In this document: one piece after another, positions 26,855 through 62,497 of the stretch
How positions within the stretch are numbered: position 1 is the first letter of the stretch
Layout: the number at the start of each line of letters is the position of its first letter
NCBI GenBank assembly: GCA_048500355.1
Contig: JASNYD010000006.1
Span: 480,211-544,210, forward strand
Origin: Kofleriaceae bacterium
GTDB taxonomy: Bacteria; Myxococcota_A; Polyangia; Haliangiales; Haliangiaceae
Reading direction: 5' to 3'
DNA length: 64,000 nucleotides
Translations under genes and position numbers: made by a program
Notes under the pieces: generated by a model
The model's input: the letters and a program-made list of their open reading frames with translations, nothing else
Told to the model about the DNA's origin: nothing
Databases searched by the model: none

Positions 26855-28963
26855 GTGGCACGACGTCACGCCCACCGCGCCGGCGACTGGTCGTCGGTGG
26901 CGGTGCGCCTCGACGAGATCATCAGCGCCCACGGCGGCGCCGATCCGTTCGAGGAGGCGCTCACGCTCCTGGTCGCGCGGCTCGCCCACGAGGCCAGCGG
27001 CGGACCGCCGGCCGGGTTCGTCGGCGGCGCCGCCGGCGCGCCGGCGCGGGTGAACGAGCTGGTCGCGGCGGCGGCGGCGCGGTGGCCGGGCGTCGTCGAG
27101 CCCGGCCGCACCACCGGCCTCGGCGGCGCGGCGCTGGCGCGGTGCGCCGCCGTGCTCGACGGCGTGGCGCTGCTCGGCGACGAGCTGGTCGGCCTCGACG
27201 CCGTCTTCGAGCACCTGGTGGCCCACGTCGCCAAGGGCCAGAAGGGGCAGTTCTTCACGCCCCGCCACGTCATCGCCGAGGTGGTCGCGATGCTGGCGCC
27301 GCGGCCGGGCGAGCACGTCGTCGATCCGGCCTGCGGCTCGGGCGGCTTCCTGTGGCACGCCCTGGCGGCCGCGCCCGGCTGCGTGGCGTGGGGGTTCGAC
27401 GTCGATCCGCGCGCGGTGCGGGTGGCGCGAGTCATGCTCGCCGCCCACGGCGCGCCGGTCGGGCGGGTGGCCTGCGTCGACAGCCTGCGCCGGCCGGCGC
27501 TCGAGGACCACGCCCGCGGCCATGGCGCGCCCCGCGGCTTCGACGTCGTCCTGACCAACCCGCCGTTCGCCGGCGACGTCGGCCGCGCCTTCGACGGCGC
27601 CTACGAGCTGGCGCGCGGGCGGGTCGAGCGCGACGTGCTGTTCGTCGAGCGCGTGGTCGAGCTACTGCGCCCGGGCGGGCGCTACGCCATCGTCCTGCCC
27701 CACAACAAGGTCGGCGGCGCGACCTGGAGCCACGTCCGGCGCTGGCTCCTGGCGCGGACCGAGGTGGTGGCGGTGCTCGGGCTCGGCCGCCCCACCTTCC
27801 TGCCCCACACCAGCCAGAAGGCGTGCGTCGTGATCGGCCGGCGGCGCGCCCGCGCCCTGGCGGCGCCGCCCGCTGGCGAGCGGGTGCTGTTCTTCGTCAG
27901 CGAGCGCGCCGGCAAGGACGCCCGCGGCCGGCTGGTGCGCGACGCGAGCGGCGCGATCGATCACGACCTGGGCGCGGCCGGCCCGGCGGTGCGGGCCCGG
28001 CTCGCGGCGGCGGCGGCGCGGGCGGCGACGGCGACGGCGGCGCGGGCGCGGGCGACGGCGACGCGGGCGCGGGCGGCGACGGCGGCGCGGTGGCCGGGCG
28101 GCGCGCGCCCGCGGCCCGCGCGACGACCGCGCCCCCCGGGCGCCGCCGCCGGCCGCGTGATCACGCGGCGGGTCGGCGAGCTCGGCCCCGCGCTGGTGCT
28201 GGCCCCCGAGCGCTTCGACCCGCGGCGCGCGGTGACCGTGGCCGGCGCCCGCCGCCTCGGCGAGCTGGTGGAGGTGGTGAGCGACACCGTCGACGCCCGC
28301 GCCCTGCCGGCGGACGCGCCGGTGCTGGTGCTCGACACCGGGCACGCCTGGGAGGGCCTGGTGCTGGCTCGCCACGCCCCGGTGACGGCGCGCGACCTGG
28401 GCAGCGCCAAGCGGCGCCTGGCGCCGGGCGACGTCATCATCTCGCGCCTGCGGCCGTACCTGCGGCAGGTCGCGCTCGTCGACGACGACCTGTTCGCGCG
28501 GGCGCCGGGCGGCAACCTGGTGGTGGCCTCGACCGAGTTCTACGTGCTGCGGCGGCGAGGCGGCGGCAGCGGCGCGGGCGCCGACCGCACGACCGGCGGG
28601 ACCGGCGGCAGCCGCGAGGCGGGCGGTGCCGGCGGTGCCGGCGCGGATCGCGGTCGGCGCGCGCCCGCCGCCCTCGACCCGGCGGGCCTGGTGCCGTACC
28701 TGCTGTCGGCGCCGGTGCAGGCCGCGCTCGCCGCCGGCCAGGAGGGCGGACACCACCCCCGCTTCGAGCGCGCCCAGCTCGAGGACCTGCCGGTGTCCGA
28801 CGCCCTGGTGCGCCGCGCGGCGGCGATGGCGCGCGCGGTCCGCGACCAGGCCGCGAGCTTCGGCGCCGCCGTGGCCGGCGGCCGCGCGCTGATCGCCACC
28901 GTCGAGCGCGAGCTGGCGCCACCACCGCGGCGACGCCCCACGCCGCGCCGCTCGACCCGGTAA
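26855..28963 (+). CDS. Solitary N6-adenine DNA methyltransferase, HsdM-like catalytic domain fused to an HsdS-like target-recognition domain (M+S fusion)
   Basis: GQFFTPRHV (HsdM N-terminal motif), VVDPACGSGGFL (SAM motif I), VLTNPPFA (motif IV NPPF). The C-terminal ...ISRLRPYLRQVALVDDDL...STEFYVLRRR resembles type I S-subunit TRDs. The linker is low-complexity AAAARAATATAARARATATRARAATAAR. No HsdR or endonuclease gene is adjacent. The start could also be the GTG at 26897/26903. Confidence 0.8.
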   Translation: MARRHAHRAGDWSSVAVRLDEIISAHGGADPFEEALTLLVARLAHEASGGPPAGFVGGAAGAPARVNELVAAAAARWPGVVEPGRTTGLGGAALARCAAVLDGVALLGDELVGLDAVFEHLVAHVAKGQKGQFFTPRHVIAEVVAMLAPRPGEHVVDPACGSGGFLWHALAAAPGCVAWGFDVDPRAVRVARVMLAAHGAPVGRVACVDSLRRPALEDHARGHGAPRGFDVVLTNPPFAGDVGRAFDGAYELARGRVERDVLFVERVVELLRPGGRYAIVLPHNKVGGATWSHVRRWLLARTEVVAVLGLGRPTFLPHTSQKACVVIGRRRARALAAPPAGERVLFFVSERAGKDARGRLVRDASGAIDHDLGAAGPAVRARLAAAAARAATATAARARATATRARAATAARWPGGARPRPARRPRPPGAAAGRVITRRVGELGPALVLAPERFDPRRAVTVAGARRLGELVEVVSDTVDARALPADAPVLVLDTGHAWEGLVLARHAPVTARDLGSAKRRLAPGDVIISRLRPYLRQVALVDDDLFARAPGGNLVVASTEFYVLRRRGGGSGAGADRTTGGTGGSREAGGAGGAGADRGRRAPAALDPAGLVPYLLSAPVQAALAAGQEGGHHPRFERAQLEDLPVSDALVRRAAAMARAVRDQAASFGAAVAGGRALIATVERELAPPPRRRPTPRRSTR

Positions 28964-29086
28964 CGGCTCGTTACCCGCGCGGGGTGCCGTGGTCACGGAC
29001 CGTTACCTGGACGCTGGCGCTCCGGCGCGAAGCCGGTGAGATCGCACGCGGCGACGACGGGCACGCACGCTGCAAACGTTGCGCGC

Positions 29087-30280
29087 ATGCGCGCCCTCGC
29101 CACCCTCCCCCTCCTCGCCTCCTCCCTGGTCGCCGCCTGCGGCGACGCCCCCGTCGATCCCGCGCCGGACGCCGGCGCGCCGCTCCTCGCGCCGCCGCCG
29201 CCCGGCGCCGGCCGCCAGCTCGCCATGACCGTCGCCATCGCGCCCGGCCAGGAGATCGAGCAGTGCCAGTACGTGATCGTCGACGAGGCGATCGAGATCT
29301 CGCGGTTCGAGCACGCCTACACCACCGGCTCGCACCACCTCCTGCTCTACCAGACCGCGCTGGCGCCCGCCGCGGTCCCGCGCGAGCGCTTCGACTGCAC
29401 CGGCGCGCCGCTCACCGAGCTGGGCGTGTCGGGGATCGCCTACGCCGCCCAGGTCCCCGCCGGCGAGCTCGCCTATCCGGCCGACGTCGCCCTGCGCGCG
29501 GCGGCGGGCTCGGTGCTCCTGGTCCAGACCCACTACCTCAACGCCGGGGTCGCCGCGCTCGACGCCGAGGTCCGCCTCAACCTGTGGTACGCGCCGGCGC
29601 CGGCGGCGATCGAGGCCGGCACGCTGTTCTTCTACGACTGGGCGATCGTGGTGCCGGCGGGCGGGACCGCGACCGCGCACATGCGCTGCCAGCTCCCGGG
29701 CGACGTCCAGCTCCTGTTCGGGATGTCCCACATGCACCGCCGCGGCGTCGGCTACCGCGCCGTGCTCGAGCCGGCCGACGGCGGCGCGCCGGTCGAGCTG
29801 TTCGCGACCACGGCGTGGGAGGGCGTCGAGCCCCTGCGCTACCAGCCGGCGCGGCCGGCCGGCGCGGGCGCGGTCATCGACTACCGCTGCGACTTCGCCG
29901 GCGAGCCCGGGCGCACGATCATCGAGGGCCCGTCGGCCGACGCCAACGAGATGTGCATGTTCATCGCCTCCTACTACCCGCGCCTCGACCCGGCGACCGA
30001 GCTGTGCGCCGGGCCGGGCTCGGGCCCGGTCTTCACCGGCGCCCGGACCTGCGCCGAGACCGTGAGCTGCGTACGCGCCGCGGGCGCCGACGAGGTCGCC
30101 GCCGAGACCTGCCTGGTCGACACCTGCGCCGGCTCGAGCCCGGCGGCGGTCGAGCTGATGAAGTGCATCAACTTCCAGTGCGGCGAGGCGTGCGCGGTCC
30201 CCGGCACCGCGGCCTGCGACCAGTGCGTGATCAGCACCTGCGGCGAGCCGTTCGGCGACTGTCAGGCCGCGAGCTGCTGA
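29087..30280 (+). CDS. Lipoprotein with PHM/DBH-like (copper type II ascorbate-dependent monooxygenase) His/Met copper-site signature and a Cys-rich C-terminal tail
   Basis: Start at the internal ATG MRALATLPLLASSLVAACGD (lipobox). In track numbering: HH at 100-101 (GSHHLLLY), H166 (VQTHYLN), H232/H234 (MSHMHRRG), M306/M308 (NEMCMFIASY). Spacings of 65/66/72 match the CuH (H,H,H) / CuM (H,H,M) spacing of peptidylglycine alpha-hydroxylating monooxygenase. The C-terminus has about 12 Cys (CAETVSCVRAAG...CINFQCGEACAVPGTAACDQCVISTCGEPFGDCQAASC). Confidence 0.55.
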   Translation: MRALATLPLLASSLVAACGDAPVDPAPDAGAPLLAPPPPGAGRQLAMTVAIAPGQEIEQCQYVIVDEAIEISRFEHAYTTGSHHLLLYQTALAPAAVPRERFDCTGAPLTELGVSGIAYAAQVPAGELAYPADVALRAAAGSVLLVQTHYLNAGVAALDAEVRLNLWYAPAPAAIEAGTLFFYDWAIVVPAGGTATAHMRCQLPGDVQLLFGMSHMHRRGVGYRAVLEPADGGAPVELFATTAWEGVEPLRYQPARPAGAGAVIDYRCDFAGEPGRTIIEGPSADANEMCMFIASYYPRLDPATELCAGPGSGPVFTGARTCAETVSCVRAAGADEVAAETCLVDTCAGSSPAAVELMKCINFQCGEACAVPGTAACDQCVISTCGEPFGDCQAASC

Positions 30281-30355
30281 GGCCGCGAGCTGGGCCCGCG
30301 AGCCGCCGAGGCCGCGACCTGCCGAGGCCGGGGCGAGCTCCGGTGGCCCTCCGGG

Positions 30356-30393
30356 GTGGCCGGATTCCGGCCGGGTGGCCGGATCCCGGCCGG
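30356..30393. promoter_or_regulatory. Two tandem near-identical palindromes (ggccgga-t-tccggcc and ggccgg-atc-ccggcc) in the intergenic region
   Basis: Directly visible: gtggccggattccggccgggtggccggatcccggccgg. They lie downstream of the monooxygenase-like gene and about 130 bp upstream of the metalloprotease ATG. Candidate operator pair or terminator hairpins. Confidence 0.35.
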
Positions 30394-30454
30394 CCTCGCG
30401 TCCGGATCTCGGACACCGTAGCCGCAAGCCCGCGAGATCGGTAGCACGCCCGCC

Positions 30455-30520: not shown

Positions 30521-33454
30521 ATGGGCTGGACGAACTGGATGACGATGACGCTGGTGCTGGCCGCGGTCGCGGGCTGCACCGAGGGAGTGATCGTGGGCGG
30601 CGGCGGCGGGTCGCGGTACGACCGCGAGGTCAAGGGCGGCAACCTCCACCACGCGGCGGTCGAGGGCGCGAGCCGGACCGACCTCGATCTCGGGCGCGTC
30701 CTGGCGAGCGCGCCGGCGCTGGCGCCCGCGGTGGGGCCGCTGGCGGCGGGTGACTTCACGATCACCACCGCCACCTCGCGCGGGGCGACCGGGCGACCGC
30801 TGATCCACGCGATGGCCCAGCAGCACGTCGGCGGCGTGCCCATCGTCGACAGCCACCTCTACCTGACGGTGGCGCCGGGGCCGGGCCAGGGCGAGGGCCA
30901 GCTCGTGGCGTCGAGCTACCGCCTCTTCCACGGCGCCGACGTCGACGTGACCCCGTCCGTCGATCGCGCCCGGGCCGAGGCCCGGGCCCGCGCGGTGCTG
31001 CGCGCCCCGGCCGACGCCGCCGTGCGCGAGGCGCGGCTGGTGATCCGCGAGCGGAGCGGCGCGCTCGCCCTGGTGTGGGACGTGACCCTCGATGGTCACG
31101 ACGGCCGCGCCCTGATCCACGCCAGCGGCCCGCGCGCCGGCACCGCCGACGTGCTCGACGATCGGGTGTACGAGACCAGCGGCACGGTGTCGGCGTGGGT
31201 CGCGGTCGGCGGCGCCCCCGGCGCCGGCGGCGAGCCGCGGCTGGTCGCCCAGGCCGACACGATGGTCCTCGCCGGCGAGGTGTCGACCTCGACCGCCGGC
31301 GACGGTCGCTACCTCCTGGCCGCGCCGGCCGGCTCGATCGTGACGACGACCGTCGCCGGGCTCGCGGCGCTGGTCACGGACGTCGGCGGGCTCGCGGTCG
31401 AGGCCTCGGCCCCGGCCGCGCCGGAGGTCGACCTGACCCTGGGCGGCGCCAGCGAGCGCGAGCTGGCCATGACCACCGCCTACCACTTCACGACCGCGGC
31501 GCGCCGCTTCCTGCTCGCCAACGGCGTCCCCGCCAGCGTGCTGGGCGCGCCGCTCGCCACCCGGGTCAACCTGGCCTCGACGTGCAACGCCTACTACTCG
31601 CCGGCGGGGCGCACGATCAACTTCTTCCGCGCCGGCGGCGGCTGCAACAACAGCGCCGAGGCCAGCATCATCGCCCACGAGTACGGCCACTTCGTGGACG
31701 ACACCTTCGGCGGCATCACCGACGGCGGGCTGAGCGAGGGCTGGGGCGATCTGCTGGCCTGCTTCCTCCTCCGCGATCCGGTGATCGGCGGCGATCTGTT
31801 CCACTCGAGCGGCCAGCTCCGGACCTGCGACAACGACTACCGCTACCCGCGCAGCGGCCACGACAGCGTCCACGAGCTGGGGCAGGCGTGGTCCGGGTTC
31901 GCCTGGCACGCCCGCGCCGGCCTCATGGCCGCGCACGGCGCCGAGGCCGGCGAGGCCCGCGCCCGCGCCCTGATCATGCCGTCCCTGGTCACCAACGCGC
32001 CCGACATCCCGGCCGCGGTGCGCGAGGTCTTCCTGCGCGACGACGACGATGGCGACCTGCGCAACGGGACCCCGAACTGGGACGTGCTCCTGGCCGCGGC
32101 CGAGCGCCACGGCCTGCGCTTCGCCGTCGACGTCGACCACGGCCCGCCCGGCGCCGTCACCGATCTGATCGCGACCGCGGTCACCCCCACCACCGTCACC
32201 CTGCGCTGGACCGCGCCCGGTGATGACGGCGATCACGGCACCGCCGCGCGCTACGAGCTGCGCTGGGCGCTCGAGCCCATCGACGAGGCCAGCTTCGCCG
32301 CCGCCGCTCACCTGCCGGCCCCGGCGCCGCTGCCGGCGGGTCACCTCCAGACCACGACCGTGTCGGTGCCGCCGGTCGAGCGGCTCTACCTGGCGCTGCG
32401 CGCCATCGACGAGCTCGACCACGCCGGCGCGCTCTCGAACGTGATCGAGGTCGAGCTGCCGGCGCCCCGGGTGATCTGGAGCGACGGCGCCGAGGCCGGC
32501 CTCGGCCCGTGGCAGGCGACCGGGCTGTGGCACGTCAGCGAGCGACGGGCGGCGGCGGGCCAGCGCGCCTTCCGCTACGGCGACGACGCCACCGGCACCT
32601 ACGACACGCCCGGCCGGGCCAACCAGGGCGCGCTGCTGTCGCCGATCATCGACCTCGACGCGGCCGTCGCGCCCCGCCTGACCTGGCGCGAGCATGTCGA
32701 CGTCGAGGAGTCGACGACCTACGACCTGCTCCGGGTCGAGGTCTTCGACGTCGACGATCCTTCGATCGCGGTCAGCGGCGAGAAGCTCCACGGCCGCACC
32801 GCCGGGTTCACGCCGCGCCTCGTCGACCTGAGCGGGCTGGTCGGTCGGCGGGTCCGGATCCGCCTGTGGTTCGACACCGTCGACGCGGCGATCAACGACG
32901 GCGAGGGCTGGTACGTCGACGAGCTGCGCGTGCTCGGCGACCAGGGGCCGGCGCCGGAGCCGCCCGCCGGCGGCCGCCTCCTCGTCAACGAGCTGCTCGC
33001 CGATCCGCCGGCCGGCTACGACGCCAGCGGCGACGGGATCGCCAGCCCCACCGCCGACGAGTTCGTCGAGCTCGTGAACATCGGCGACCGGCCGCTCGAC
33101 CTCGGCGGGGCCACCATCACCGACGACGTCGCGGTGCGCGGCACGTTCCCACCCGGGACCGTGCTGGCCCCGGGCGAGGTCCTGGTCCTGTTCGGCGGCG
33201 GCGTGCCGGCGCTGCCCGGCGTCCGCACCATGGTCCTCGGCCCGCTCGCGCTCAACAACGGCGGCGACACCGTGACCATCCGCGGCGCCGGCGGCGAGGT
33301 CCTGGCCCAGCTCGCCTACGGCAGCGCCGCCGGGGACGACCAGTCGCTCACCCGCGCGGTCGACCACGACCCCGAGGCCCCGCTCGTCAAGCACCGCACG
33401 CTCTCGTCCGCCCCGGCCTCACCCGGCCGGCGCGCCACCGACCCCGTGCCCTGA
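30521..33454 (+). CDS. Secreted HEXXH zinc metalloprotease lipoprotein (gluzincin, M4/M36-like) with fibronectin-III-like and C-terminal lamin-tail (LTD) domains
   Basis: Lipobox MTLVLAAVAGCTEG. IIAHEYGHFVDDTFGGITDGGLSEGWGD (HExxH plus downstream Glu). TVTLRWTAPGDDGDHGTAARYELRWA (Fn3-like). LLVNELLADPPAGYDASGDG...EFVELVNIGDRPLDLGGATITD (LTD motif). Confidence 0.8.
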   Translation: MGWTNWMTMTLVLAAVAGCTEGVIVGGGGGSRYDREVKGGNLHHAAVEGASRTDLDLGRVLASAPALAPAVGPLAAGDFTITTATSRGATGRPLIHAMAQQHVGGVPIVDSHLYLTVAPGPGQGEGQLVASSYRLFHGADVDVTPSVDRARAEARARAVLRAPADAAVREARLVIRERSGALALVWDVTLDGHDGRALIHASGPRAGTADVLDDRVYETSGTVSAWVAVGGAPGAGGEPRLVAQADTMVLAGEVSTSTAGDGRYLLAAPAGSIVTTTVAGLAALVTDVGGLAVEASAPAAPEVDLTLGGASERELAMTTAYHFTTAARRFLLANGVPASVLGAPLATRVNLASTCNAYYSPAGRTINFFRAGGGCNNSAEASIIAHEYGHFVDDTFGGITDGGLSEGWGDLLACFLLRDPVIGGDLFHSSGQLRTCDNDYRYPRSGHDSVHELGQAWSGFAWHARAGLMAAHGAEAGEARARALIMPSLVTNAPDIPAAVREVFLRDDDDGDLRNGTPNWDVLLAAAERHGLRFAVDVDHGPPGAVTDLIATAVTPTTVTLRWTAPGDDGDHGTAARYELRWALEPIDEASFAAAAHLPAPAPLPAGHLQTTTVSVPPVERLYLALRAIDELDHAGALSNVIEVELPAPRVIWSDGAEAGLGPWQATGLWHVSERRAAAGQRAFRYGDDATGTYDTPGRANQGALLSPIIDLDAAVAPRLTWREHVDVEESTTYDLLRVEVFDVDDPSIAVSGEKLHGRTAGFTPRLVDLSGLVGRRVRIRLWFDTVDAAINDGEGWYVDELRVLGDQGPAPEPPAGGRLLVNELLADPPAGYDASGDGIASPTADEFVELVNIGDRPLDLGGATITDDVAVRGTFPPGTVLAPGEVLVLFGGGVPALPGVRTMVLGPLALNNGGDTVTIRGAGGEVLAQLAYGSAAGDDQSLTRAVDHDPEAPLVKHRTLSSAPASPGRRATDPVP

Positions 33455-39475: not shown

Positions 39476-39504
39476 TAGATAGAGAACCCGCCGCGCGGTG
39501 TCAA
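39476..39504 (-). promoter_or_regulatory. Near-consensus sigma-70 promoter for the tRNA-Arg/tRNA-Lys operon
   Basis: The minus strand reads TTGACA-ccgcgcggcgggttctc-TATCTA (17-nt spacer). The -10 element ends about 20 nt upstream of the tRNA-Arg 5' end. Confidence 0.55.
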
Positions 39505-39788
39505 GGGACCGGCCGCCGAAGTGCAGGCGCACGGCCTGCCGACCGGGGGATGGCCCCCGGATCGGGGGACGGCGCCTGTGGGTCAGCGCCCACACCGTGA
39601 GCATCACCCCACGTTTCGCTGGGGGGGAAGTCACCAGGAAGCGCCTGATTTTTCAGGGGTTCGAAGCAGAAAGGGGCTTCAAGAAGCGGCCTGACCGCTA
39701 TATCATGCTGCCGACATTGCCCGTGAGAGGCACCGCGGTCGCTCGGGAGGCGACCACGGTGTTCGACCAGACCGGGGAGGCCATCGCC

Positions 39789-42700
39789 GTGTTTAGCAAA
39801 GACTCGCGCATCAACATCCTGCTCACCCTCATGTTCCTCGCGCTCTCCGCGTGCGGCGGCTTCGGCTCCGGCTGCGGCTGCTCGCAGCAGCCCTTGCCCC
39901 CGGGAGGACTGCCCAGGGATCAGACGGTGGAAGGCGGCGGCCAGATCCGCGTCACCCGCGCCGGCTTCGAGAAGCTGACGTCGGTGGTCCCGGCGATCCT
40001 CAACGACTCGCTCGGCGGCGGCATGTGCATCGGCCGCACCAGCTTCCTCGGCGCCGACGTCTGCTACCAGACCACCGGCCCCAACGGGATGTGCGCCCCG
40101 GGCTGCTACGTCGCGATCAACGTCACCCAGACCCGGCTCACGGTCACCAACCAGAACACGCTCAACGTCTACGTCCGCGCCAACGTCAACACCGCGGTCC
40201 GCATCGACCCGCCGCTCTTCAGCGCCTGCACGATGACCGTCACCGCCAACAACCTGTCGGCGGACCTCGACATCGGCTTCGCCATCGACCCGGCCACCGG
40301 CGAGCTGCGCATCCGGCTCAACCGCATCAACGACTACAACATCTCCGGCGTCAACTTCTCCGGCTGCTCGGTGCTGAGCTGGATCGGCGACCTCGCCGTC
40401 AGCCTGCTCGACTCGTTCCTGGGCCGCTTCATCGTCGACCTGCTGACCCCGACCATCAACGACCTCATCCAGGGCTTCCTCCCGGACCCGCTCGGCATCG
40501 AGGGCATGGTGGACATCGGCCAGCTCATGGCCGGCGTCTCCCCCGGCACCGAGGGCTTCATGGAGGCGCGGATGGTGCCCGGCGGCTACGTGCAGCTCGG
40601 CGGCGGCGGCATGTCGCTCGGCCTCATCACCGGCCTCAACGCCGACCAGGATCCGTCGACCCGCACCCCGGCGCTCGACAGCGAGCCGGCGTACTGCGTC
40701 CCGCCGCTGCCCGCGCCCAACTTCGCGGCGCCGCCGGCCTCCTTGCCGGCCAGCTCGCGCGGCACGTTCACCCTCCTGCCCGCCGGCGCGTTCGTCGGCA
40801 ACCCCGAGCCCGCCGACGATCTGGCCATCGGCATCTCCGAGACCACCCTCGACCTCGCCGGCCACCACCTCGTGACCTCGGGCGGCATGTGCCTGGGCGT
40901 CGGCACCGGCCTCGTCGACCAGCTCCGGCTGGGGACGATCGGCCTGCTGGTGCCGTCGGTGGGCGAGCTCGGCGACGGCAGCGAGCCGCTGCTCCTGGTC
41001 ACCCGGCCGCAGCGCGCGATCGACTTCACGATCGGCGACGGCACCGAGGCGTCACCGGCGATCACGATCCACATCGACGACTTCGAGGTCGACTTCTACG
41101 GCTTCGTCTTCGAGCGCTACACCCGCGCCTTCACGATGTCGCTCGACCTCAACGTCGGCATCAACCTCGAGTTCATCCAGCAGCCGGGCATGCCGGCGCA
41201 GGTGCGGCCCATCCTGGTCGGCCTGACCTCGTCGAACATCGGCATCACCGTCCTCAACAACGAGTTCGTGCGCGAGACCCGCGACCAGCTCGAGGCCGTG
41301 CTGCCGACGGTGTTCGACCTCGCCCTGCCGCTCCTCGGCAGCGGCATCGGCCCCATCGACGTCCCCGACTTCGCCGGCTTCACCCTCAACAACCTGCGGG
41401 TGCAGAAGGTCACGACCAGCGAGGACGAGTTCATGGCCATCTACGCGTCGCTGGGCGCGTCCATGATGATGCGCGACCGGGTCGAGACCTACCCCTCGCT
41501 GCAGCCGGTGATCGACGCCCTCGACCGCGAGACCGCGGTCGCGGCCTGGCCCGACGTGGTCCTGCTCGACCTCGCCCTCGACCCCGGCACCGGCGCCACC
41601 GTGGGCGGCACCGGTGCCCGCGCTCGCCTGCGCGCGGTCGACGTGCCGGCGCCCGAGGACGTGCGCGCCGCGCTGCTCGCCAAGGACCCCACCGGGCTGC
41701 CCCACGTCACGATCGACGTCGACACCCACGACGCCCTCGGCCGCCAGCTCGAGTGGAGCTGGAACCTGAACGGCGGCCTGTTCCGGCCGTTCACCACCGC
41801 CGCGCCCCTGGTCATCGCCGACCGCGCCTTCGCCTGGCAGGGCAAGTACACGATCGGCCTGACCTCGCGCGTGGTCGGCGACTACCGCACGACCGCGCCC
41901 GAGACCGTCGAGGTCCCGGTCGTGATCGACTCGGCGCCGCCGAAGATCCACGCCGACCAGGCGCGCTGGCGCGGCACCCGGCTCCACGTGCCGGCCACCG
42001 ACGCCGTCTACGACGCCGACGAGCTGCAGTGGGCGTGGGGCCGGCCCGGCGACGACGAGCCGTCGACCGACTGGGCCAAGGACGCGTCGATCGACCGCGC
42101 CACCGCCGCCGACCTCTCGCTCGACGACGAGCTCCTGGTGTTCGTCCGCGATCCCAGCGGCAACGTCGGCCAGGCGCTGGCCAAGAGCGGCTTCCACGGC
42201 CAGCCCGGCGAGAGCGGCTGCAACTGCAGCGCGCCCGGCCAGGGTCCGAGCGCCGGCTCGCTGCTGCTCCTGGCCCTGGTCGGAGCGTGGCTGCTTTTTC
42301 GCCGTCGCGCCGCGACCGTCGCCCGGGTCGTCGCGCGCGCTAGCTCGGGTCGGGCCCTGTCGCAGCTCGCGCTCTTCGTCGGCGTGAGCGTGGCCGCCTC
42401 GCTGGTCCCCGGCTGCTCGTGCGGCAACAGCGCCGGCCAGGCCTGCGAGATCACCGAGGACTGCGCCAACTTCGAGTGTCCGTCGGGCCAGATCGCGATC
42501 TGCTTCGAGGGCGAGTGCTTCTGCACCGACGACGTGCCCTACGGCAAGATCGGCTCGTTCTCCGACGTCGCGGTGGCGCCCAACGAGGACGCCATCGTCA
42601 GCGCCTACGCCGCGTTCCACGGCGACCTGGTGGTGGCACGCTTCTCCGGCGCCGGCCGCATCCCCAACGAGGCCTGGGAGTGGGTCGACGGCGTCCCCGC

Positions 42701-43766
42701 CGGCCCGGTGGCCCTGCCCGACTCCGACGTCCGCGGCGGCATCCTCGAGCCCGGCGACGACGTCGGGCTCTACACCAGCGTCGCGATCGGCGCCGCCGAC
42801 GTCCCGATGGTCTCGTACCACGCCCGCGAGGACGCCTCGCTCAAGTTCGCCGCCAAGTACGGCGGGGCCTGGCACAACCACGTCGTCGACTCCGGCACCG
42901 GCGACGTCGACCCCGAGATCGGCGGCGAGGCGGCCGGCATGTTCACCTCGATCAGCCTGGGCAGCGACGGCCGCCCCGGCATCGCCTACATGGCCACGCA
43001 GTCGCAGGGCGGCGGCATCGTCACCGCCGAGGTCCGCTTCGCCCAGGCCACCACCGCCCAGCCCATGAGCTCGGCCGACTGGACCGTCACCGTGCTCGAC
43101 ATGATGACGCTGCCCCCGGCCGATCCCAACGCCGTCGACATCTACCCGCTGCCGGGCGGGGTCGGCCTGTTCGTCGAGTCGACCCGCGACCTCGACGGCC
43201 ACCCGGTCGTCGTCTACTACGATCGCCAGAACGGCGACCTCAAGATGGTGCGCGGCAACGCCACCGGCTTCGCCGCCCCCGTGGTGCTGGCCGGGCAGAC
43301 CACCGACGACGGCTGGTACCCCTCGGTGTCGGTGGACGCCGCCGGCGTCCCCCACGTCGCCTTCCAGGGCGCCGACCACGACGACGTCTTCTACCTGAAC
43401 ACCGGGACCATGACCCGCGAGATGGTCGACGACGGCTACCGCATCGTCGGCACCACCCCCGACGGCCTGCCCAAGCCCGAGTACCACTTCGTCGGCTCCG
43501 ACACCCAGATCGTCATGACCCCGGCGACGCCGTACGTCATCTACCAGGACTCGACCACCCACGAACTGCTGGCGGCGTCCAAGAACGGCGACACCTGGCG
43601 GCCCGAGCCCATCGCCGGCGCCGAGGCCACCTTCGTCGGCGCCTACGGCTTCTTCGCGTCGGCGGCGCTCGGCACCTCCCAGATCACGGTCTCGACCTGG
43701 GTCCTCCACCAGGCGCTCAACGACAACTGGGTCGAGGTCTTCCGCCTGCCGATCGGCCCGCAGTAG
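39789..43766 (+). CDS. Large lipoprotein ORF that appears to be two surface proteins in one frame: an N-terminal lipoprotein ending in a MYXO-CTERM-like motif, joined without a stop to a second lipoprotein with its own lipobox
   Basis: The track ORF 39498..43766 is 1422 aa. I put the start at the GTG giving (M)FSKDSRINILLTLMFLALSACGG (lipobox; alternative ATG 39705). At about 42220-42310 the protein reads ...GESGCNCSAPGQGPSAGSLLLLALVGAWLLFRRR (MYXO-CTERM-like). With no stop it continues AATVARVVARASSGRALSQLALFVGVSVAASLVPGCSCGNSAG, a second signal peptide and lipobox. The second half has Cys-rich and propeller-like repeats. A low-GC leader and promoter-like region lies at 39560-39790. Confidence 0.55.
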   Translation: MFSKDSRINILLTLMFLALSACGGFGSGCGCSQQPLPPGGLPRDQTVEGGGQIRVTRAGFEKLTSVVPAILNDSLGGGMCIGRTSFLGADVCYQTTGPNGMCAPGCYVAINVTQTRLTVTNQNTLNVYVRANVNTAVRIDPPLFSACTMTVTANNLSADLDIGFAIDPATGELRIRLNRINDYNISGVNFSGCSVLSWIGDLAVSLLDSFLGRFIVDLLTPTINDLIQGFLPDPLGIEGMVDIGQLMAGVSPGTEGFMEARMVPGGYVQLGGGGMSLGLITGLNADQDPSTRTPALDSEPAYCVPPLPAPNFAAPPASLPASSRGTFTLLPAGAFVGNPEPADDLAIGISETTLDLAGHHLVTSGGMCLGVGTGLVDQLRLGTIGLLVPSVGELGDGSEPLLLVTRPQRAIDFTIGDGTEASPAITIHIDDFEVDFYGFVFERYTRAFTMSLDLNVGINLEFIQQPGMPAQVRPILVGLTSSNIGITVLNNEFVRETRDQLEAVLPTVFDLALPLLGSGIGPIDVPDFAGFTLNNLRVQKVTTSEDEFMAIYASLGASMMMRDRVETYPSLQPVIDALDRETAVAAWPDVVLLDLALDPGTGATVGGTGARARLRAVDVPAPEDVRAALLAKDPTGLPHVTIDVDTHDALGRQLEWSWNLNGGLFRPFTTAAPLVIADRAFAWQGKYTIGLTSRVVGDYRTTAPETVEVPVVIDSAPPKIHADQARWRGTRLHVPATDAVYDADELQWAWGRPGDDEPSTDWAKDASIDRATAADLSLDDELLVFVRDPSGNVGQALAKSGFHGQPGESGCNCSAPGQGPSAGSLLLLALVGAWLLFRRRAATVARVVARASSGRALSQLALFVGVSVAASLVPGCSCGNSAGQACEITEDCANFECPSGQIAICFEGECFCTDDVPYGKIGSFSDVAVAPNEDAIVSAYAAFHGDLVVARFSGAGRIPNEAWEWVDGVPAGPVALPDSDVRGGILEPGDDVGLYTSVAIGAADVPMVSYHAREDASLKFAAKYGGAWHNHVVDSGTGDVDPEIGGEAAGMFTSISLGSDGRPGIAYMATQSQGGGIVTAEVRFAQATTAQPMSSADWTVTVLDMMTLPPADPNAVDIYPLPGGVGLFVESTRDLDGHPVVVYYDRQNGDLKMVRGNATGFAAPVVLAGQTTDDGWYPSVSVDAAGVPHVAFQGADHDDVFYLNTGTMTREMVDDGYRIVGTTPDGLPKPEYHFVGSDTQIVMTPATPYVIYQDSTTHELLAASKNGDTWRPEPIAGAEATFVGAYGFFASAALGTSQITVSTWVLHQALNDNWVEVFRLPIGPQ

Positions 43767-57269: not shown

Positions 57270-59701
<2,432 letters not shown>

Positions 59702-59702
<1 letters not shown>

Positions 59703-62497
59703 CACGCGACCTCCCGCCGCGGCCGCGTCGCGCCGCGGGCCCGCGCCCGGGCGCGGCGCCCCCCCACGCCCGCACCGGCGAGGAGCAGGAGCGCGACCAG
59801 CGCCGCCGCCGCCGCGCCGCCGCCCCCGCCGGCCTGGCAGCCGCCGCCCCCGCCCGCGGTGACGTACTCGTCGCGGCGACCGGCGTCGGGCGCCGGCACC
59901 GGCGGCACGTCGCAGGTGCCGCGGGTGCAGACCTCGCCGGCGCCGGGGCAGACCACGCCGAGGCACGGATCGCGCTCGCACTGCTGGGTGTCCGGGTTGC
60001 ACGCCTGCCCCGCCGGGCACACCCGCCCGGTGCACGGATCGCGCACGCACACGCCGTCGTCGTCGTCGCACAGGTAGCCCGGCGGACACGGGCCGTCGCA
60101 CGGATCGGCGACGCACTGGCCGAGCTCGCAGCGCTGGCCGGCCGGGCAGTCGAGGGCGCCACAGCTCGTGACGCAGGCGCCGCCGGTGCAGTACTCGGCG
60201 GCGCCGGTGCAGCTCACGCCGTCGCACGGGTCGCTCTCGCACACCCCGCCCACGCACTGCTGGCCGGCGGTGCAGTACTCCGGGAAGGTGGTGCAGTCGT
60301 CGGGGCGGCACTCGCCGAGCGCGCCGACGCAGACCTGGCCCGAGGGGCAGGTGACGCCGTCGCAGGCCCGCACGCAGCAGCCCTCACCGGTGCAGCCGCC
60401 GCCGGGCTGGCACACCTGGAGGTCGCCGCCGGGCAGGGTCGGACACGTCACCTCGTAGCAGACGTCGACGATGCAGAACCCCTGCGAGCAGGTGCGCCCG
60501 GCCGGGCACGGGAACTCGCCGCCGGCGCACGGCGGCGCGCACTGGCACTGGGTGCAGGTCTGGCCCGACGGGCACAGCGCCGGCGGCTCCTCGTCGGTCT
60601 GACCGTCGCAGTCGTTGTCGTCGCAGTCGCAGCGCTCGGGCTCGGACGGCGTGCCGCCCTGGCACACGTACGCGCCGCCGACGCAGCGCAGCACGCCGGG
60701 CATGCACAGCGGGGTGCCGTCGGGCGCGAGGTTGCACGGGCCCATGTCGGGCACGCCGTTGTCGACGACGCCATCGCAGTCGTCGTCGAAGTTGTTGCAG
60801 ACCTCGGGGCCGCCGCCGACGCTGCCCTCGCACTCGAGGACGCCGTTCACGCACACGGTCTGGCCGACGCCGCACGAGCTCGAGCAGTCGGCGCCGCCGG
60901 TGTCCTCGTCGACCAGCACGTCGCAGTCGTTGTCGATCGTGTCGCAGGTCTCGTCGGTGGGGCCGATCTCGCCCAGGCACGCGCCCCAGGTGCCGCCGCC
61001 GCCAGGTGGGCAGACCTGGATGCCGGGCTGACAGGGGCCGGTGTTGGGGTTGCCGCCGGGCAGGTTCGAGCACGAGCGGCTGAAGCCGTCGACCACCCCG
61101 TCGCAGTCGTTGTCGAGCCCGTCGCAGGTCTCGGCCGAGCCGCCGACGGCGGTGCAGCCGACCCAGGCCCCCAGCTCGCAGGTCTCGGTGCCGCGCACGC
61201 ACTCGCCGACGTCGGTGCCGCAGTCGCGGACCAGCCCCTCGTCCACCAGCATGTCGCAGTCGTCGTCGAGCCCGTTGCACAGCTCGACGTCGCCGCAGCC
61301 GACGCACGCGCCCTCGTCGATCGAGCCGTCGCAGTCGTCGTCGAGGTTGTTGCAGACCTCGGTGGTCGCCGGCTGCCCGGGGTTGGTGATCTGACACTCG
61401 GTGCCGTTGCCGGCGGCGTTGCAGACGCGAACGCCGGTGCCGCGGCAGATCCCCAGCCCGCCGTCGTCGCAGACCATCCCCTTGTTGGGGAAGTCCTCGT
61501 CGACCAGCGTGTCGCAGTCGTCGTCGAGGTCGTTGCACGACTCGAAGCGGATGGCGTCGGCGATGATCTGCGAGATCGCGAGCTGCAGCTCCTCCTCGTT
61601 CTGGGCGTAGGCGCCCTCGTTGACCCCGGGCACGTTGACCGCGCCGCCGGCGTGGGCCAGGCCCTCGATCTGGGCGTCGCCGGGCGTCTGACCGAAGCCG
61701 ATGGGCTTGGTCTCGATGCGGTAGGTCTGGCCGCCGACGTTCGTGGTCAGGAGCGCGGTGGCGGCGGCGGTGGTGTTCGCGAAGGTCGTGCAGGTCTCGT
61801 CGCCGTCGGTGAGCATGATGACGATGTAGGGGCGGCACTGCGCGCCCGACGGCAGGAAGACGTCCTTGTAGGGGTCGTTGGCGATGGGCGCGAAGCCGGG
61901 CGCGCCGCTGGGCCACAGCTCGGTGCCGTTGGTGGCCTGCAGGCCCTGGAAGTAGCGCTGGGCGGAGCGGAGCGTGCCGGCGACCGGCGTCCAGCCGGCG
62001 CTGTACAGCTCGGGGTTCGACGTGATCGCGTTGCCGCAGGTGCCGCACGAGAAGTCGTTCCAGCGGGCGAGGTCGCCGCCGTTGCCGTCGACGAGCCCGA
62101 CCAGGATCTCGCCGCGGGCGTCGTTCGACATCGTCGCGGTGCAGCCGCTGCCATTGCTGGGGTCGCACGCGCTGCAGTCGATCGCGCTGGCCGAGCAGCC
62201 GTTGGCGCAGTTGGTGTCGGTGGTGGTCGAGCGGAAGCGGCCGAGCCCCAGCACCATGTCGCCGTAGCTGTTGGCGATGTTGTAGATGGCGCACTTGGCG
62301 TGGTCGAGCCGCGAGTTGCCGGCGCCGGCGCAGCTCGCCGGCCCCGACGTGGTCGCGGAGTCCATCGACCCCGAGGTGTCGACCATCAGCAGCACGTAGG
62401 GCTTGAGCGCCTGGCCCGACTGCGCCTCGGCCCGCGCCGTGACCAGTCCCAGGACGACGAACGTGGCTACCCCGAGCCACGCGAGAGGGCGTCGCAT
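59702..62497 (-). CDS. Secreted VWA-domain (PilY1/tip-adhesin-like) protein with Cys-rich DDDCDG modules, an EGF-like Cys-rich stalk and a MYXO-CTERM tail
   Basis: Signal peptide MRRPLAWLGVATFVVLGLVTARAEAQ. YVLLMVDTSGSMDS (MIDAS). Modules CNDLDDDCDTLVDED, CNNLDDDCDGSIDEG, CNGLDDDCDMLVDEG, CDGLDNDCDGVVDG, CDTIDNDCDVLVDED, CNNFDDDCDGVVDNG. C-terminus GGGGGCQAGGGGG...ALVALLLLAGAGVGGRRARARARG. Confidence 0.8.

Follow-up and report, generated by a model that had tools for sequence, protein, structure and literature searches.

Peptidylglycine alpha-hydroxylating monooxygenase (PHM) and dopamine beta-hydroxylase (DBH) are the textbook noncoupled binuclear copper monooxygenases. PHM binds the C-terminal glycine of its substrate through R240, Y318, and N316. 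To our knowledge, essentially all of the mechanistic work on these two enzymes has been done with the animal proteins. Peptide amidation in bacteria was attributed in a 2026 PNAS paper to an alpha-ketoglutarate iron enzyme and an MNIO enzyme; PAM/PHM serves in that study only as a comparison, represented in the tree by a sequence from Chlamydomonas (PMC12912966). Here we describe a PHM/DBH-like gene at positions 29087 to 30280 of a 64-kb stretch of DNA from a Kofleriaceae bacterium (the window; G+C content, ~76%). We consider it likely that this gene encodes an extracytoplasmic, lipid-anchored, noncoupled two-copper monooxygenase of the PHM/DBH superfamily.

The only coding-type composition in the flagged region was found in the frame of the plus-strand open reading frame (ORF) 29036/29087-30280, with a G+C fraction of 0.98 at third codon positions (GC3) and 0.57 at second positions (GC2). 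An alternative upstream GTG at 29036 would give a 414-amino-acid (aa) ORF. We took the ATG at 29087 as the start because the homologues begin at the same place; the initiating Met is nearly invariant in an alignment of 46 homologues with identities down to 24% (alignment A1). Counted from this ATG, the 397-aa protein has His residues at positions 76, 83, 84, 149, 198, 215, and 217 and Met residues at positions 1, 47, 199, 213, 216, 289, 291, and 358. A sequence-only reading of this DNA had proposed a PHM-type His/Met signature at HH100/101, H166, H232/234, and M306/308. Those numbers take the GTG at 29036 as residue 1, and each is 17 too high with respect to the ATG. The signature itself is real, as are its spacings, which are 65 residues from H84 to H149, 66 from H149 to H215, and 72 from H217 to M289.

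Homology to the animal enzymes became clear at the level of the family. Database searches yielded 81 homologues of the 397-aa protein, many of them with precomputed Cu2_monoox_C matches. When the relatives in A1 were scanned one by one against Pfam, Cu2_monoox_C was found in 45 of the 46 (best E value, 1.8e-14) and Cu2_monooxygen was found in 7. The profile derived from A1, searched against PDB sequences, matched rat PHM with an E value of 1.8e-18 (70.2 bits; profile positions 56 to 303) and human DBH with an E value of 7.5e-17 (64.9 bits; profile positions 51 to 315). In the profile alignment, the HH motif falls on PHM H107/H108, Q-x-H-Y falls on Q170/H172, H-x-H falls on H242/H244, and E-M-C falls on E313/M314/C315. 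The protein is homologous to PHM and DBH across both beta-sandwich domains.

Structure prediction gave the same picture. The AlphaFold2 model made with A1 had a mean predicted local distance difference test score (pLDDT) of 92.8 and a predicted template modeling score (pTM) of 0.88. In the model, a disordered stretch of 30 to 40 residues is followed by all-beta domains, with strands at residues 42 to 168 and 178 to 297, and by a helical C-terminal domain. When the model was compared with the PDB by the use of Foldseek, the best 31 matches were all PHM or DBH structures (E values, 1.7e-15 to 5e-12), with ~290 aligned columns and TM-scores of up to 0.65 normalized on PHM; DBH appeared at rank 8. 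Beyond these 31, matches were to generic jelly-roll proteins at E values of ~5e-5. The predicted structure is a two-domain fold with PHM topology. The assignment to the PHM/DBH type that had been made from the letters alone was thereby borne out by profile match over both domains, by fold, and by the ligand sets described next.

Conservation was counted in an alignment of 206 full-length family sequences. The CuH ligands H83, H84, and H149 are each kept in 205 sequences, and the CuM ligands H215, H217, and M289 are kept in 203, 205, and 203 sequences, respectively. The ligand Met is M289, not M291, which is a variable position. A1 contains 20 invariant columns, including the lipobox Cys, all six ligands, and five further Cys residues. 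Judged from these alignments, the full CuH (three His) and CuM (two His and one Met) ligand sets are intact. Q147, the equivalent of PHM Q170, is Q, E, N, or D across the 206 sequences save for two that have Ser. R219, two residues beyond the CuM ligand H217, is family specific and is kept in 175 of the 206; it is our best guess for a residue that may contact substrate. Three of the disulfides of PHM also have counterparts. C60-C104 and C268-C290 correspond to PHM C81-C126 and C293-C315 by profile alignment, and C201-C307 corresponds to PHM C227-C334, an equivalence judged by the distance to the Met ligand (18 versus 20 residues) because C307 and C334 lie past the aligned region. The phi coefficient for co-loss of the two Cys residues was 1.0 for C268-C290 and 0.7 for C201-C307. 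The other two PHM disulfides are missing.

Several observations count against the monooxygenase assignment. In the Pfam scan of the target protein alone, the only match was to Cu2_monoox_C and was below threshold (15.3 bits, with a cutoff of 23; E value, 0.014), and there was no match to the N-terminal Cu2_monooxygen domain. An NCBIfam scan gave no match, and a single-sequence search of the PDB with phmmer gave only noise; the protein on its own is nearly invisible to standard annotation. Full-text literature searches turned up no work on a bacterial homologue of PHM or DBH and no biochemical data for any family member, and genomic context yields no functional clue. The subthreshold Pfam match and the empty PDB search would be compatible with a chance arrangement of His and Met residues in an unrelated fold. 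However, five of the seven His residues are invariant ligand positions, and the profile match to PHM (E value, 1.8e-18), the structural match (E value, 1.7e-15), and the invariance of the ligands across the family refute this explanation, to which we assign practically no weight.

A noncatalytic role is a more serious alternative. The protein could be a copper-binding envelope lipoprotein, acting in buffering, delivery, or sensing, that has the PHM fold and metal sites and performs no oxygen chemistry. The lack of a conserved partner or of a substrate-related or reductant gene nearby and the loss of the PHM substrate-binding residues (see below) would fit such a role, as would the presence of putative metal-binding proteins with MopE motifs at positions 57270 to 62497, though these are 27 kb away. 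Yet both sites are kept in >98% of the 206 sequences, down to 24% identity, and the kept residues include the weak Met ligand typical of an O2-activating CuM, the Q170 equivalent, and the EMC motif. Simple copper binding would not call for two distinct sites, and the Cys residues of the C-terminal tail appear to act as disulfide pairs rather than as free thiolates. We therefore regard a purely copper-binding function as unlikely and favor a catalytic monooxygenase.

The location of the proposed enzyme is indicated by its N terminus (MRALATLPLLASSLVAAC), which consists of a short basic and hydrophobic signal with a lipobox at its end. The lipobox reads MRALATLPLLASSL-VAAC and fits the signal peptidase II pattern [LVI][ASTVI][GAS]C, and Cys is present at lipobox position 18 in 197 of the 206 family sequences. 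The protein carries a bacterial lipoprotein signal, as had been noted earlier, and is predicted to be lipid anchored. The core starts ~22 residues past the lipobox Cys. In the relatives P0180 (641 aa) and P0214 (617 aa), the tether between lipobox and core is filled by collagen-like G-x-y repeats, which fits the idea of the tether as a variable spacer that keeps the enzyme off the membrane.

The C-terminal tail, described in the sequence-only reading as having about 12 Cys residues, has exactly 12, located between residues 322 and 397. Modeled alone, residues 308 to 397 formed a separate domain of five helices (pLDDT, 93.5). Gain and loss of the tail Cys residues across the 206 sequences resolved into six clean pairs (322-392, 328-342, 347-397, 360-385, 365-377, and 369-380; phi, 0.9 to 1.0), and the Cys count is almost always even (6, 8, 10, 12, or 14). 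The same presence/absence analysis recovered the PHM-type pairs C268-C290 and C201-C307. The six covarying pairs and the even counts suggest a disulfide-stapled domain in an oxidizing compartment, not a thiolate metal cluster. We also considered Csp-like Cu(I)-thiolate storage by the tail and rejected it on the basis of the covarying pairs, the even counts, and the short helices. The tail had no match among Pfam or PDB sequences, its model gave nothing better than an E value of 3.6 with Foldseek, and a tail profile searched against 5.8 billion proteins retrieved only fragments of the same PHM-like family; none of the searches revealed a resemblance to the DBH dimerization domain. Given the Cys covariation, the most likely role of the tail is in structure or docking rather than in the storage of metal on thiolates. 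For the tail only, a further comparison is Vanabin2 (PDB 1VFI), a helical protein that is rich in disulfides and binds metal.

To gauge family size, the A1 profile was searched against 1.84 billion representative proteins (50% identity clusters). There were 9,767 matches at an E value of <=1e-3, a tier that presumably includes other superfamily clades, 4,944 at <=1e-10, and 1,009 at <=1e-30. Most of the best 150 matches are ~380 to 440 aa long and match to the end of the tail; the others include shortened fragments and extended fusion proteins. In a collection with a single genome for each species, 198 loci were found, and the cultured organism Sorangium cellulosum So ce56 (NC_010162.1, ~9.430 Mb) is represented among them. 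The best 80 of these 198 are mostly labeled Myxococcales, Polyangia, Kofleriaceae, Haliangiales, Polyangiaceae, or Sorangium, and the remainder of the 80 carry the generic labels delta proteobacterium, Proteobacteria, and Pseudomonadota. One locus (L010, from a metagenome-assembled genome [MAG] of the same species labeled “uncultured delta proteobacterium”) is 97% identical to the target at the PHM-like gene. Several genomes have two family copies at distant chromosomal sites (Table 1), indicating that the family has diversified within genomes; no paralogue was found within the 64-kb window. The family, recognized by having lipobox, core, and tail together, is large and is widespread among loci mostly labeled Myxococcales or Polyangia. 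Bacterial enzymes of this kind had been called rare and poorly characterized in the sequence-only reading. With 1,009 clusters at the strictest threshold and 198 loci, they are not rare; they are uncharacterized, in that no study was found.

Some longer members carry fusion partners (an alpha/beta hydrolase, a collagen-like linker, or DNA_alkylation). These vary from member to member, and some may have arisen from errors in gene calling. One related architecture bears on electron supply. P0080 (593 aa; 29% identity), a distant relative from a Myxococcota MAG, carries at its N terminus a domain of the c-type cytochromes (CSTCH motif; Pfam Cytochrome_CBB3 E value, 0.0011), which is fused to the pair of Cu2 monooxygenase domains. 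Separately, alpha/beta-hydrolase esterases recur weakly. Genes for polyhydroxybutyrate (PHB)-depolymerase-type esterases lie directly downstream of the PHM-like gene in two related MAGs (L021:7588-8574 and L022:7416-8567), and P0089 (703 aa) has Abhydrolase_1 at residues 445 to 688 fused at its C terminus, which could be gene-calling read-through.

With regard to substrate, the positions of PHM R240, N316, and Y318 are taken in the profile alignment by M213, M291, and I293, in columns whose residues vary among the 206 sequences and are mostly hydrophobic. Because the carboxylate and backbone anchors of PHM are replaced by variable hydrophobic residues, the substrate is probably not a C-terminal glycine or a hormone-type peptide. 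Pfam searches found no PAL/NHL-like lyase in the target protein or among the 27 window ORFs scanned and no DOMON domain in the target or its 46 relatives. The loss of the PHM anchors together with the lack of DOMON places the protein in the superfamily and outside both the PHM and the DBH subfamilies. These results bear on a DBH- or tyramine-beta-hydroxylase-like role, in which the protein would hydroxylate a small periplasmic amine or aromatic metabolite. The profile scores DBH close to PHM (64.9 versus 70.2 bits), DBH ranks eighth in the Foldseek search, and hydrophobic residues stand in place of the PHM peptide anchors. Against this, the DOMON domain is lacking, no biosynthetic or catabolic genes for amines or aromatics are consistently found nearby, and nothing in the present data separates amines or aromatics from other substrates, so that we consider this specific role quite improbable.

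The sequence-only reading had favored a different substrate. A surface-anchored PHM-like enzyme next to a secreted metalloprotease was taken to suggest oxidative modification of exported peptides or amidation-like chemistry at their C termini. In the form weighed here, the enzyme would work together with the protease on exported or released peptides. The adjacency stands. An ORF on the same strand, starting 240 nt downstream of the PHM-like gene, has a lipobox-like N terminus, so that both products have lipoprotein-type N termini, as well as an LTD domain (Pfam E value, 1.1e-12), an fn3-like stretch, and a weak M36 match that is below the cutoff (E value, 0.0078). The label “putative secreted metalloprotease,” which is motif based, is reasonable. 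The PHM-like gene is followed by the protease in L010 and in two other close relatives (L011 and L015, at 72 to 76% identity), and the catalytic machinery is PHM-like. The link between the two genes did not hold up beyond these three. The protease is absent beside other relatives with 67 to 76% identity (L001/L013, L007, L014, L017, and L018). In L001/L013 (76% identical), a He_PIG/beta-helix protein occupies the protease slot, and the surrounding methylase, VWA, and AMP-binding genes remain in synteny. Among distant relatives, the PHM-like gene is found in unrelated contexts, and the protease is absent.

For a broader survey of neighbors, the PHM-like genes of 89 loci were clustered at 60% identity into 30 lineages, and 56 immediate neighbors were scanned with Pfam. 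We also compared the contigs of six homologues, searched the 89 loci for the window neighbors by tblastn, and clustered 646 neighbor ORFs all against all. No recurrent partner emerged. The 56 neighbors hit 83 Pfam families (of which the top 25 are listed), none more than three times, and the largest clusters among the 646 ORFs reflect synteny among Sorangium strains. The absence of a shared neighbor across 30 lineages indicates that the PHM-like gene behaves as a stand-alone unit. The protease adjacency is not a family feature, and protease-coupled peptide modification is without comparative support. Given also that the R240, N316, and Y318 positions are not kept, that no PAL/NHL lyase was matched among the window genes scanned, and that an inverted repeat separates the two genes, we consider amidation-like chemistry on peptides very unlikely. 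Genome context is silent on the substrate of the proposed monooxygenase, and its function must come from experiment.

The catalytic steps proposed for the monooxygenase are inferred by analogy with PHM and DBH, as are its substrate, reductant, and membrane leaflet. After processing by signal peptidase II, the enzyme would hang from the membrane on a Pro/Ala tether of ~20 residues. CuH and CuM would each be reduced by one electron. O2 would bind Cu(I)M, and the resulting copper-superoxo species would abstract a hydrogen atom from a substrate C-H; a second electron, delivered by long-range transfer from CuH, would then lead to the hydroxylated product. Myxobacteria are not known to make ascorbate. 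Ascorbate is an unlikely reductant here, and a periplasmic redox protein or small molecule is more likely. The fused cytochrome of P0080 hints that protein redox partners can feed the PHM fold in bacteria, and it is possible that this domain is a built-in electron donor replacing ascorbate. We tentatively suggest, as a possibility held with much less confidence than the monooxygenase assignment itself, that the protein is the founding example of a clade, widespread in Polyangia-type myxobacteria, of ascorbate-independent, membrane-anchored enzymes that hydroxylate an envelope or extracellular substrate and in which the orphan tail would dock a periplasmic redox partner or let in its electrons. 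If that is true, the clade would offer a tractable bacterial model for noncoupled binuclear copper monooxygenases.

Table 1 Features of the PHM-like gene and its surroundings (window coordinates) and related loci elsewhere
Feature	Position or loci	Strand	Details
PHM/DBH-like copper monooxygenase lipoprotein (likely), complete coding sequence	29087..30280	+	397 aa plus stop; ORF, codon-position G+C, homologues, profile, AlphaFold2
Predicted lipoprotein signal peptide MRALATLPLLASSLVAA and lipobox Cys18	29087..29140 (Cys18, 29138-29140)	+	Sequence; Cys18 invariant in A1
Pro/Ala-rich flexible tether, residues 19-40	29141..29206	+	pLDDT ~50 over residues 1-30; no secondary structure before residue 42
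N-terminal beta-sandwich (CuH domain), ~residues 41-172	29207..29602	+	Aligned with PHM; 7/46 relatives match Cu2_monooxygen
CuH ligands H83/H84 and H149; disulfide C60-C104	N-terminal domain (29333-29338; 29531-29533)	+	PHM alignment
C-terminal beta-sandwich (CuM domain), ~residues 173-307	29603..30007	+	Weak Pfam Cu2_monoox_C; PHM alignment
CuM ligands H215/H217 and M289; disulfides C268-C290 and C201-C307	C-terminal domain (29729-29737; 29951-29953)	+	
Family-specific Cys-rich five-helix tail, residues 308-397	30008..30277	+	12 Cys; inferred disulfides from Cys covariation
GC-rich inverted repeat	30358..30391	+	15-nt arms, 87% complementary; ~80 nt past stop; without T-tract
Putative lipoprotein metalloprotease	30521..33454	+	977 aa; HEYGH at residue 386, then SEGWGD; LTD domain
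Paralogue pairs in Sorangium cellulosum	L035/L036 (So ceGT47); L034/L078 (So ce388); L046/L075 (So ce131)		
Paralogue pairs in MAGs	L028/L033 (Polyangia); L016/L084 (Myxococcales)		
Exo_endo_phos/LTD lipoprotein loci	L030, L032, L036, L037, L042, L044, L048, L051, L054, L060, L065, L088		

Other features of the window were also recorded. The inverted repeat downstream of the PHM-like gene may possibly mark a transcript end or terminator; a scan for consensus promoters and terminators came up empty. The region spanning the stop codon and the following intergenic DNA (30270 to 30412), which includes this repeat, is made up of short GC-rich direct repeats with 13- to 23-nt units in two to three copies each. 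Upstream, an N6 DNA methylase ORF (26855 to 28963, plus strand; 702 aa) has a long Ala/Arg-rich, low-complexity middle; it corresponds to two genes (398 and 226 aa) in the syntenic locus L001 and may be a fusion or an ORF miscalled because the DNA is so rich in G+C. A 1,422-aa ORF at 39498 to 43766 (plus strand) whose composition is strongly of the coding type (GC3, 0.97) has no Pfam match at an E value of <=0.001. Two minus-strand ORFs, at 57270 to 60311 (1,013 aa) and 59702 to 62497 (931 aa), contain repeated Cu-binding_MopE motifs (E values, 3e-21 and 7e-16), and one of them has a GH115_C-like domain. They overlap by ~600 nt, so that at least one start is probably wrong, and they have no obvious link to the PHM-like gene. 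At the Sorangium loci, a lipoprotein with Exo_endo_phos and lamin-tail (LTD) domains is encoded ~4 to 5 kb (a few genes) downstream of the PHM-like gene (Table 1). Its LTD is 38 to 44% identical to the C-terminal LTD of the window protease. This proximity is probably a result of synteny between closely related strains and not a sign that the genes work together.

A compact, single-gene bacterial enzyme with family members in Sorangium, which can be cultured, would bring electron delivery without ascorbate within easy reach of study. A bacterial PHM-like enzyme would also offer a route to a new substrate class for this chemistry and a way to test the bacterial origin of the neuroendocrine enzymes.

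Among known systems, the closest is PHM, the catalytic core of PAM (PDB 1PHM, 1OPM, and 1SDW). PHM and the protein described here share two beta-sandwiches, the same CuH and CuM ligands at equivalent positions, the motifs HH, Q-x-H-Y, H-x-H-x-x-G, and E-M-C, three of the five PHM disulfides (C81-C126, C227-C334, and C293-C315), and an extracytoplasmic or luminal location. They differ in that identity is only ~18%, the peptidylglycine anchors are not kept, and there is no PAL partner; the bacterial protein also has a lipoprotein anchor in place of a secretory-granule or transmembrane context and an extra 90-residue, six-disulfide helical tail. DBH, tyramine beta-monooxygenase, and MOXD1 (PDB 4ZEL) have the same catalytic core and ligands. 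DBH, whose profile match is slightly longer, likewise has an additional C-terminal domain beyond the core, but no search showed the tail to resemble that domain, and the N-terminal DOMON domain of DBH is lacking here. Other bacterial proteins with Cu2_monooxygen and Cu2_monoox_C (P0080 and P0081) have the same two Pfam domains and ligands at 24 to 29% identity; unlike the target, P0080 has an N-terminal cytochrome c domain and no Cys-rich tail. Lytic polysaccharide monooxygenases are a functional analogy only. They too are secreted or surface-located bacterial copper oxygenases that need an external electron donor, but they hold a single copper in a histidine brace on an unrelated fold, and neither a sequence match nor a structural match to them turned up. 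On the tentative reading of the family as an ascorbate-independent clade, the three disulfides shared with PHM would also point to a bacterial-type, already extracytoplasmic ancestor of the animal neuroendocrine enzymes. What is new here is a lipoprotein with a PHM-like core and an orphan six-disulfide tail, and there is good support for placing it in the PHM/DBH two-copper monooxygenase fold.

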